From Escherichia coli (GTDB lineage: Bacteria > Pseudomonadota > Gammaproteobacteria > Enterobacterales > Enterobacteriaceae), in the NCBI RefSeq assembly GCF_030013595.1, contig NZ_CP122768.1: 64,000 nucleotides of DNA; one strand, 5' to 3'. Made by a program: the position numbers. This document shows, in pieces, positions 42,001 through 45,000 of this stretch; positions within the stretch are counted from its first letter, which is position 1; every line of letters starts with the position of its first letter.

Positions 42001-45000
42001 CATTTACACTCAGGATGAATATATGGGAAAGATTAAAATTGTAGTTTCAGATCAGCAGCCGTTTATGATTGATGGGATAATTGGATTTCTCGGACATTAT
42101 CCCGATTTATATGAGGTTGTTGGGGGCTATAAAGATCTGAAGAAAGCTATAGCGGAGTGTAACAAATCTGCAGCCCAAATATTTATTTTAGGAGAATTTG
42201 CAGGTGGAATGATGGGGTCCGAACTCATAAAATGGGTTAAATCGCATAAAATAGATGCTCATATTATTACATTTGTAGCAAAAATGCCGTATATTGATTC
42301 AATAAAATTGCTTGAAGCAGGTGCGAAAGGATGCGTATGGAAAACCAGTCACCCGGCGAAACTAAATCGCGCTATTGATTCGATTAGTAATGGTTACACT
42401 TATTTTGATAGTGTACATATGGATTGTGAAAAAATATCTTCCAGATATTCCTCTGATAATCAACTTACAAATCGGGAGTCTGAAATATTACAACTCATAG
42501 CTGATGGTAAAACAAACAAAGAAATCGCTAATTTCTTGCAGTTAAGCAGGAAAACAGTCGAAACTCATAGACTCAATATCATGAAGAAATTAGATGTTCA
42601 CAGTGGTATCGAGTTGATCAAAACAGCTTTACGTATGGGTGTTTGCACTATATAAAAAAAAGAGGCTTTAGGCTCATTTTGCTAAAGCCTTACGCTTGTC
42701 TAGTTCATTAAGCCTGGTATATACAACATATATTTTTTTTGCATATTGCAGCCTCTTTTTTTGGTTTTCCATTGCAAAACCCGCGTTATATGTCCCCAGA
42801 CATTGCCACGTTACCCCACAACGTGAAAAATGATTATATAAAATCTCGGTCCCTATTTTAATGTTCAGACAGGGGTTATCTAACAAATCTCGTTCATCTT
42901 TTATTATTCCACGTTTTTTTAACATGGGAATGTGCATCTGGTTTATCTGCATTAAACCATAATCAAAACTCTTTATATTGTTTTTCTTATCCCTGTTCTT
43001 TCCGATGCTATCATTTTTTAAATTACTTTCAACAAGAGCGATAGCTTTGATCAAATTTGGTTCGATTCTGAAAATTGATCCTGCTTCATTAAAGCAAGCG
43101 CTACTGGCGAAAGACATTTTTGTAATTAATATAGAAAACATGAAGATGGATAAGATTTTAACTTTGGGTAAGCGCATATATTTTTATGTGTAGGATTGAA
43201 GGAAAGGAACGAGATACTAATATATTCAGTATCTCGTTAATCATTTAAGCGGTCAATTATCTACCATTCCAGTTCATAGTAAGGAGAGATAGGATTATCT
43301 TTCGAATACATATCATTTTGAAAAGATGCCATCCATGTTGAAACTATAAATGCTTGTATTTGATCTGTATCAGTAGCACTGGTGGTGATGTGTTTATCTA
43401 ATGAAACGACTTCATCACCCGTTGCGGTTGCTATATTTAAACTTTGAGAAAAATTATTCATATTGATTGGATTAGTCATAAAGTTCCCTTTTTTATTTGT
43501 CCAGGCCAATAGCCTATACACAATACTTTTTAATCTAGAGTATTTGATATATATTGCAATAAGGTAATTATCTTAGATGTTTTCATCTCTGTTGTTTACA
43601 TACCAGTTGCATACATCTAAACAATAAAATTGCGACAATAAAGATTTATCGCATACAAATTCTCGTCAGTTGCTTTAGTTTCAAAATGTTGTCAATTATA
43701 ACTCGATGGCTTTCACTCGAAGTTTCTTTATAGTAGAGTTTCATGTTGCTTTTGAGCGGGTTAGGCACATACATATCTACACACTCTTTTATCACAACTG
43801 CTTTTCGTCTTCTGGGTTCGAGTTGTAGTGATTTGTCTATACAAATCCTTGCCTCTTCAATTCTTTCATTATGAAAGTTGACAAGAGCTCTATAGTAGTA
43901 GAGAGAGGCTATATCAGTTGTGTGTATCTTAGCCTGTTCAAATAAGATATGAGATACTTTTGCTTGTCCAGACAGACCAGTTATCAGTCCCATAATGGCT
44001 AAAATATTTCCATCGACATTGGTTATGTCTGATACATAATGTAAAAGCTCTAATGCTTTTTGAGCAGCAAGTTCAAGTTCATATTTTCCATGAAGTGCCA
44101 AAGACATATGGCATTCCGCTAGCAGACAATAACATTCTGTTTTTAGCGTCTGTATATCACTTTTATTTTGTAATCCATCAAATATAGTCATAGCCCTGTA
44201 AATGCTTTCAGGTGTAAACTCGTAAAGTTCTTTCTTACCAGCCAACAGTTCATCTGATAAATAATGATTCTTGTAACCTTGATCTGATTTAGCTAATCTT
44301 ACAGATCGCTCTGGATTATGTACCGTTTGAAGGATATTATCTATAATAAATTGTGATGTGTTATGTAGTTCATCAACAGGAAGATGATTACTGGCGATGA
44401 GGAAAAGATTTTTAGCGTCGATCAGTTCAATGTATAAAGTTTTCACCGCGTTATTCTGGTTTATTCTTCCTGTAACGAAATAATCTGGCTTGAATCTTCT
44501 CAAAAATGAATTTTGCGATATGTGATCATTACAAAAATTTGTCGCAGCCATCGGATAGGTATAAAGGCCATCGATTTTTTTATCCGAAATGTTTTGCACC
44601 AATTCCTGGTTAAGTATTAATGGATCCAGGGTATTCAATGAAGTGGTGAAAGGAAATATAGCTATGGAATAGTCTGAAGTGTTATCTTCATTTATTTTAG
44701 TTTTGAAAACCTGTCCACTGAAACGATAACCTTTCCGGTAGATTGTTTCTATGCAACGATCATAGCCAATTTTTTCAAAAATGCAGCGAAAAGAATAAAT
44801 ACATCTTGTCAGGGACTCGTCACTTACAATAATATTTTTCCATACTGATTCGATGATCATATCTTTCAGGACAACATGACCAGCGGATTCAAGTAATACG
44901 ATCAATACTCCTAACTCTTTCGGTGGAATATAAATCTGCTCATTTCCTTGAGTAAGAATTCCATCTTCCGTGAGCGTTAATCCCTCAAGAAAATGATATG

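Follow-up and report, generated by a model that had tools for sequence, protein, structure and literature searches.

YgeK/EtrB, a NarL-type regulator of the Escherichia coli ETT2 type III secretion island with an aspartate-less pseudo-receiver domain

The gene at positions 42023..42655 (+ strand) of a 64,000-nucleotide stretch of the Escherichia coli contig NZ_CP122768.1 (assembly GCF_030013595.1; this entire stretch is hereinafter called the window) raises the question of how a regulator that resides in a type III secretion system (T3SS) island and is built like a response regulator can operate without the aspartate that accepts the phosphoryl group. The gene is intact, spans 633 nucleotides (210 codons plus stop) and is an exact match to the RefSeq coding sequence WP_000516283.1, which is labelled 'LuxR C-terminal-related transcriptional regulator' or 'response regulator transcription factor'. 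Its product is YgeK/EtrB, a LuxR/NarL-type regulator of ETT2, a type III secretion island of E. coli. The two names denote the same protein (PMC10877973, PMC11068852), and ygeK/ECs3712 is likewise listed as 633 bp long in the published ETT2 table (PMC3977695). The initial annotation described the gene as 'YgeK-like' and placed it within a T3SS island. Both the response regulator family and the location hold, the gene being found at the ETT2 position of ygeK/ECs3712, between the orgB-like and iagB-like genes, but the qualifier does not: this is ygeK/etrB itself, with 98.3% nucleotide identity to the O157:H7 allele and only two amino acid differences (S66A and I69V). An upstream ATG at 41990, which would yield a 221-amino acid product, was considered as the start and rejected because the N-termini of the homologs align with the ATG at 42023. 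The comparisons described here make it likely that YgeK/EtrB is an atypical member of the NarL/FixJ family in which an aspartate-less pseudo-receiver serves as a constitutive dimerization scaffold, the output being set by the expression level.

The N-terminal part of YgeK is recognized by the Pfam receiver model (Response_reg, PF00072; residues 6-118, 31.2 bits, cutoff 30.2) and, when this match is combined with the (beta-alpha)5 fold of the AlphaFold2 (AF2) model and the Foldseek results, the pseudo-receiver domain can be delineated as residues 4-122 (42032..42388, + strand). A phmmer search of the sequences in the PDB yields full-length matches to DesR, VraR/LiaR, RcsB, EvgA and NarL (E-values from 6e-18 to 7e-13); in these alignments, the acceptor aspartate of DesR and Asp56 of RcsB are both opposite Gly57 of YgeK. 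The direct BLASTP alignment with NarL, for which a sequence identical to PDB 1A04/1RNL was used, is gapless between residues 30 and 125 and sets the YgeK segment ending in QIFILG57E58FAGGMMG65 against DLILLD59LNMPGMNG67 of NarL. In this alignment, D59, D13/D14, S87 and K109 of NarL correspond, respectively, to G57, D10/Q11, V85 and K107 of YgeK. The absence of an acceptor aspartate relative to the LILLDLNMPG segment of NarL, as originally proposed, is thus borne out residue for residue. The same result was obtained when 17 YgeK-family proteins were aligned with 38 canonical NarL/FixJ regulators using MAFFT; in the resulting alignment, the acceptor column contains aspartate in 37 of the 38 canonical sequences and glycine in YgeK. 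Of the 17 family members, 16 have the aspartate five positions upstream of the acceptor (D-5, the 'PD' at the start of beta3), as do 35 of the 38 canonical proteins; because it is retained in both groups, the register of the alignment is fixed and a shift by one residue is unlikely. Such a shift, which would bring Glu58 (Asp in P0021) to the acceptor position, was examined specifically and rejected given that the alignment is gapless from the D-5 aspartate through the hydrophobic beta3 strand, and that beta3 of the AF2 model, which was built on the MAFFT family/canonical alignment, ends at residue 56. This strand comprises residues 53-56, so that Gly57 is located at its C-terminal end, where the acceptor sits. 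The agreement of phmmer, BLASTP, MAFFT and AF2 confirms that the phospho-acceptor position of YgeK is occupied by Gly57.

The changes extend to most of the active site. With the positions named as in Bourret et al. 2025 (PMC12632262), the first metal-binding acid (DD1) is retained, as D or E, in all 17 family members and all 38 canonical proteins, whereas the second one (DD2) is aspartate in 37 of the 38 canonical sequences but R, Q or K throughout the family; the corresponding YgeK residues are Asp10 and Gln11 (codons 42050..42055, + strand). At the acceptor position, 15 family members have glycine, one serine and one threonine. The next position (D+1) is occupied by a clade-specific acidic residue, E in 16 proteins and D in one, in place of the I, V or L of canonical receivers; in YgeK, the two positions are Gly57 and Glu58 (42191..42196, + strand). 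The conserved Ser/Thr (T) at the end of beta4, which is present in 38 of 38 canonical proteins, is replaced by V, M, I or F in the entire family and by Val85 in YgeK (42275..42277, + strand), and is followed (T+1) by E or D in 16 of the 17 members, compared to mostly M or G in canonical receivers; YgeK itself has Ala86 there. The lysine (K), in contrast, is invariant in all 55 sequences (17 of 17 and 38 of 38) and is Lys107 in YgeK (42341..42343, + strand). Thus, YgeK (D10, Q11, G57, V85, K107) keeps only DD1 and K and lacks the other three of its five catalytic residues. Also lost are the gamma-turn proline at D+4 (P in all 38 canonical proteins, never in the family; Gly61 in YgeK) and the aromatic residue at K-3 involved in Y-T coupling (Y or F in all 38, variable in the family; Cys104 in YgeK). 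By the definitions in PMC12632262 and PMC4395418, the sequence of this domain is that of an aspartate-less pseudo-receiver, which would make the protein an atypical response regulator. Near the former active site, E. coli YgeK additionally departs from residues that are nearly invariant in the family, at L14F, D52Q, Y84F and E86A, and no other member of the clade is as derived at these positions.

The family that shares this altered site is small. A search of 5.8 billion proteins identified about 20 full-length relatives that are 48-63% identical and carry the labels E. fergusonii, E. marmotae, unclassified Escherichia and Yersinia enterocolitica; beyond these, the identity drops abruptly to that of ordinary NarL/FixJ regulators (36% or less). 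In a profile search against 1.84 billion representatives clustered at 50% identity, the only full-length proteins that score well above the generic background are P0030, P0084 and P0088. The acceptor site in these proteins is LGE(F/L) or LSEF, down to 37% identity, whereas the next-best matches, including SsrB/EsrB-like proteins, all have the aspartate. The nearest curated family is the SsrB equivalog NCBIfam NF011896, with a score of 138.6 bits, under the cutoff of 242. As to the genomic context of the clade, each of the fetched loci is part of an SPI-1/ETT2-like T3SS cluster. Eight of the nine related loci (L003-L007, L009, L015 and L016) have the ygeK-family gene flanked by genes for an SLT-type lytic transglycosylase and a HilA-like protein, and in most of these, it comes directly after prgH-prgI-prgJ-prgK-orgA-orgB; in the ninth, it is directly adjacent to the spa/inv export operon. 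Some of the clusters, in the loci L007 (4206-5216) and L009 (1572-3724), share their contigs with genes for plasmid replication or partition (Rep3_N, ParA/SopB), which points to plasmid-borne ETT2-like systems of uncultured or unassigned Enterobacterales.

An obvious question is whether a kinase that could act on YgeK is encoded in its vicinity. The PCN033 regions equivalent to the window, which are 98-99% identical to it, contain no histidine kinase in their PGAP annotation. A Pfam scan of the eight open reading frames (ORFs) of at least 200 amino acids in the strain-specific 7-24.7 kb stretch, which encode an integrase, an AntA antirepressor, a D5-type primase, a GH15 protein, a transposase and unknown proteins, revealed no histidine kinase either, and no H-box, G1 or G2 motif was matched by a regular expression search of all ORFs of at least 100 amino acids in the window. 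Neither is a kinase encoded in any of the nine related ygeK-family loci, with 6-20 kb inspected in eight of these. Hence, no histidine kinase was found in the 64-kb window, in line with the initial annotation, which had noted none nearby, and a possible kinase partner would have to be encoded elsewhere in the genome. The corresponding scenario is that such a distant kinase, with BarA being one candidate, phosphorylates YgeK/EtrB on a residue other than the canonical one, for instance Asp10, Glu58 or a Ser/Thr. Asp10 and Lys107 are indeed retained, reviewed cases indicate that substitutions of DD, T or K sometimes spare the phosphochemistry and that GlnR is phosphorylated on Ser/Thr, and cross-talk from BarA to YgeK in vitro is mentioned in the literature, although second-hand (PMC11045786). 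However, in YgeK it is the acceptor aspartate itself that is missing, along with DD2, a direct ligand of the metal, and the Ser/Thr that binds the phosphoryl group, both of which are gone from all 17 family proteins, and the K-12 protein that was available to the 2005 screen ends at a stop in codon 52 (Q52*), before beta3, so that the reported cross-talk is of doubtful relevance. Taken together with the lack of a kinase in the window and the related loci, these considerations render phosphorylation at a substitute residue very unlikely.

The receiver fold is preserved despite the loss of the active site. The AF2 model has a mean predicted local distance difference test (pLDDT) score of 82.8, with values above 90 through most of residues 1-60 and a low-confidence linker at residues 132-145. 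It contains the five strands (4-9, 30-36, 53-56, 80-85 and 101-106) and five helices (13-24, 39-48, 66-74, 93-99 and 111-122) of the (beta-alpha)5 arrangement, followed, after the linker, by a four-helix helix-turn-helix (HTH) domain. The best matches of the model among solved structures, as identified by Foldseek, are LiaR, RcsB, EvgA, VraR, DesR and NarL, and the isolated receiver domains of RcsB and EvgA superpose on it at 2.6-2.9 A. The LuxR/GerE-type HTH domain (residues 147-204; 42461..42634, + strand) is readily detected with the Pfam GerE model (PF00196, residues 147-201, 4.9e-21), and the C-terminal domains of EsrB and SsrB match it in phmmer comparisons at 8e-17 and 7e-11, respectively. 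No part of the family is better conserved than this domain (mean majority frequency, 0.85). Within the receiver, conservation is high in alpha1 (0.75), beta3 (0.78), beta5 (0.80), the beta5-alpha5 loop (0.76) and alpha5 (0.74), and lowest in alpha2 (0.45) and alpha4 (0.41). Proteins of the NarL/FixJ family dimerize via the alpha1-alpha5 surface (PMC12632262), and accordingly, this conservation pattern fits a retained dimer interface.

The distribution of ygeK alleles in E. coli bears on whether the pseudo-receiver is maintained by selection. The gene is present, at 95% nucleotide identity or higher, in 3508 of the 5426 complete E. coli genomes. In most of these carriers, codon 52, which encodes glutamine in the window (CAA; 42176..42178, + strand), is a TAA stop, the mutation that splits the gene into ygeL and ygeK in K-12; TAA was found in 2257 complete genomes and glutamine in 1192, so that the window contains the minority, intact allele. 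In some genomes, a 147-amino acid product starting from Met64 is annotated (P0003). Among intact alleles (this window, O157 Xuzhou21 and SLK172), the whole gene has a ratio of nonsynonymous to synonymous polymorphism (pN/pS) of 0.04-0.07; the ratio is 0.07-0.11 for residues 1-125 and between 0.03 and 0.16 for the receiver part, values that derive from 2-3 nonsynonymous and 8-14 synonymous substitutions. The low pN/pS in intact alleles implies that the receiver domain is maintained rather than decaying, and the retention of the altered active site across the clade points in the same direction.

These data speak to the view that the N-terminal domain is decaying, as a relic of a former SsrB-like regulator in a degenerating island, such that the HTH domain alone matters. 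Attrition of ETT2 is widespread, the orgB-like gene directly 5' of ygeK is frameshifted in the window itself, about 65% of the ygeK-carrying genomes have Q52*, and the four departures of YgeK from the strong family consensus listed above could be taken as signs of erosion. However, drift would not be expected to keep the altered active-site signature intact down to 37% identity. The low receiver pN/pS of intact alleles, the confidently modelled fold, with pLDDT above 90 for most of residues 1-60, and the conservation of alpha1, beta5 and alpha5, which is nearly as high as that of the HTH domain, are all at odds with decay as well, and this view is considered highly improbable.

The preferred interpretation of YgeK/EtrB as a regulator with a constitutive pseudo-receiver scaffold can be formulated as follows. 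The protein would not be switchable by aspartate phosphorylation. Its pseudo-receiver would be a permanent scaffold, most likely an alpha1-alpha5 dimerization module, that presents the C-terminal HTH domain to DNA, and the glutamate at D+1, the basic or amide residue at DD2 and, in most members, the Glu/Asp at T+1 may hold the former pocket fixed around Lys107. EtrB would then be a constitutively competent DNA-binding dimer governed by its abundance, similarly to SecR, HP1043 and ChxR, and this abundance would be set via QseA and autoregulation. The initial suggestion that the protein is an atypical, phosphorylation-independent regulator gains support from the loss of three of the five key residues, the occurrence of this loss across the clade and the signs of purifying selection, although it is still inferred from sequence. 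Several points weigh against the proposed scheme. About two thirds of the ygeK-carrying genomes have the premature stop, so the regulator is dispensable in much of the species. The substitutions that underlie the pN/pS estimates are few. The alpha1-alpha5 dimer and the salt bridges of the former pocket are predictions from conservation patterns. Finally, there is the reported in vitro cross-talk from BarA to YgeK, a second-hand statement that cites Yamamoto 2005 (PMC11045786).

A different possibility emerges from residues that are private to the clade. P13, F22, Y30, F59, W71, W106, P111 and the C-terminal C208-T-I are among the many invariant residues of the YgeK clade without a canonical counterpart. 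The Cys-Thr-Ile terminus (residues 208-210; 42644-42652 in the window) is the same in 17 of 17 family proteins, with cysteine in the Cys208 column in all of these compared to none of the 38 canonical regulators; Trp106 (K-1) is invariant as well, Trp71 is found in 16 of the 17 family members, and both are clade-specific. Such residues would fit a pseudo-receiver that is a regulated input domain and responds to a small ligand, to the redox state (via the clade-invariant cysteines Cys46 and Cys208) or to a partner, such as a canonical NarL-type regulator (for example, RcsB) or a T3SS component that would couple the secretion status to transcription. The tight co-location with T3SS genes in every locus is compatible with this possibility, as are the ligand-, redox- and partner-controlled cases listed in a review of pseudo-receivers (JadR1, RitR, WhiI/BldM and VpsT), and a heterodimer with a canonical regulator such as RcsB would follow the WhiI/BldM precedent. 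The same island also encodes YqeH, a 210-amino acid LuxR-HTH protein (49187-49819, - strand) that has no receiver match and is EcpR/MatA-like, EcpR/MatA being its best NCBIfam match (73.8 bits, cutoff 300); MatA is an auxiliary partner of RcsB. However, Cys46 is also cysteine in 11 of the 38 canonical regulators and is probably a buried structural residue. Furthermore, the W[FLM][TS]R motif for cyclic di-GMP (c-di-GMP) binding is absent from YgeK, and published reviews report direct binding of EtrB to ler DNA and name no cofactor. A regulated input domain is therefore possible but unlikely. Binding of c-di-GMP in the manner of VpsT and CsgD was considered separately and rejected: a regular expression search found no W[FLM][TS]R, the two tryptophan contexts of YgeK being WVKS and WKTS.

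More speculatively, the YgeK clade might be a dedicated pseudo-receiver family of T3SS islands in which the dismantled pocket has been rebuilt into a new regulatory device. This device could be either a built-in 'phosphomimetic' charge network, formed by the glutamate at D+1, the basic residue at DD2 and the acidic residue at T+1, or a redox, ligand or partner site composed of the Cys208-Thr-Ile tail and Trp71/Trp106, with RcsB or a protein of the secretion apparatus as a conceivable partner that would link secretion or host cues to the transcription of ler and ETT2 without a kinase. This proposal is regarded as quite improbable.

The constitutive scaffold, which is the favored reading, has precedents among known regulators, and comparison with these helps to position YgeK/EtrB. 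YgeK/EtrB of enterohaemorrhagic E. coli (EHEC) O157:H7 and of avian pathogenic E. coli (APEC) (ECs3712) is the product of the same gene and shows no structural difference from the protein encoded in the window. SsrB of the Salmonella SPI-2 island and EsrB of Edwardsiella are, like YgeK, NarL-type regulators of T3SS islands with a very similar HTH domain. SsrB has Asp56 and a cognate kinase, SsrA. Unlike SsrB, YgeK has Gly57, is not accompanied by any kinase found in this analysis and belongs to an SPI-1-like rather than an SPI-2-like island. NarL, RcsB, DesR, VraR/LiaR and EvgA share with YgeK the two-domain architecture, the fold and the conserved alpha1/alpha5 surfaces, but possess the complete set of DD, D, S/T and K, as well as the D+4 proline and the K-3 aromatic residue. 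A closer functional parallel is SecR, an RcsB-like protein of methylotrophs that has neither a phosphorylation motif nor a kinase, forms a stable dimer and binds its own promoter (PMC13199381). Like YgeK, SecR is genomically tied to the pathway that it controls, although the clade, the host group and the regulon all differ, and although dimerization of EtrB, unlike that of SecR, is so far a prediction. BldM/WhiI, RamR, VpsT, CsgD and RedZ also combine a receiver-like domain with a LuxR-type HTH and are active without aspartate phosphorylation. Among these, VpsT and CsgD employ the motif that YgeK lacks, and VpsT ranks below canonical regulators in the Foldseek comparison with YgeK, whereas WhiI requires BldM and YgeK has no known partner. 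Aspartate-less receivers as a class account for about 4% of all receivers.

What has been reported on the biology of EtrB is compatible with control at the level of expression. The monocistronic etrB gene is subject to positive autoregulation and to activation by QseA, and EtrB directly binds the ler regulatory region, activates LEE (the enterocyte effacement locus) and represses etrA and eivF (PMC10877973, PMC8565820, PMC6393859). In APEC, deletion of ygeK alters flagella, motility, biofilm formation and serum phenotypes (serum sensitivity) (PMC11068852). A scan of the region upstream of ygeK in the window for promoters, terminators and repeats yielded nothing above chance.

In the window, ygeK is preceded on its 5' side by eprHIJK, orgA and the orgB-like gene. 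On its 3' side, there is a convergent gene for an iagB-like lytic transglycosylase (42674..43177, - strand; Pfam SLT, 1.2e-27), followed by ygeH, which encodes a HilA-like regulator (43646..45022, - strand) with Trans_reg_C and TPR domains in Pfam, denoted 'HilA family transcriptional regulator YgeH' in RefSeq. The orgB-like gene is split by a 1-bp indel into the ORFs 41030-41620 and 41535-41801, whereas in PCN033 it is intact and encodes 235 amino acids (equivalent to window positions 41094-41801). Because of this disruption, the ETT2 apparatus of this strain is probably defective even though ygeK is intact. YqeH represents a second LuxR-type regulator without a phospho-switch in the ETT2 island.

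Outside this region, positions 1-7069 and 24553-62897 of the window match PCN033 at 98-99% identity, and positions 7070-21083 and 23222-24553 are absent from that genome. The former insertion is an approximately 14-kb strain-specific integrative element that adjoins a tRNA-Gly gene and is covered to no more than 58-67% by any complete E. coli genome; it encodes a tyrosine integrase (7169-8422), an AntA-like antirepressor (9851-10651) and a D5-type primase (12636-14384). The latter (23222-24553) is an insertion sequence (IS) element located, relative to PCN033, between the GH15 gene and the start of ETT2, with an rve-family transposase encoded at 23234-24139 (- strand).

Altogether, neither the gene and its regulatory role nor the pseudo-receiver class is new; what is added here is the description of the YgeK/EtrB receiver as aspartate-less. 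The literature open to search contains no statement that the acceptor aspartate is missing from YgeK/EtrB and does not mention the LGE(F/L) clade or its fixed T3SS synteny, and YgeK/EtrB is not named in the reviews on pseudo-receivers and aspartate-less receivers or in the supplements of PMC12632262. The case of YgeK leaves general concepts unchanged and should not surprise a specialist. Nevertheless, EtrB/YgeK contributes to LEE expression in EHEC and to the motility, biofilm and serum phenotypes of APEC and, if the protein has no phospho-switch, the hunt for a 'missing kinase' would be pointless and the focus would shift to QseA, autoregulation and potential partners or ligands. The LGE(F/L) signature of this T3SS-linked clade could be used for annotation, and YgeK/EtrB, if the proposed reading is correct, would provide a pathogen-relevant and genetically tractable E. 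coli example of the poorly understood pseudo-receiver class.

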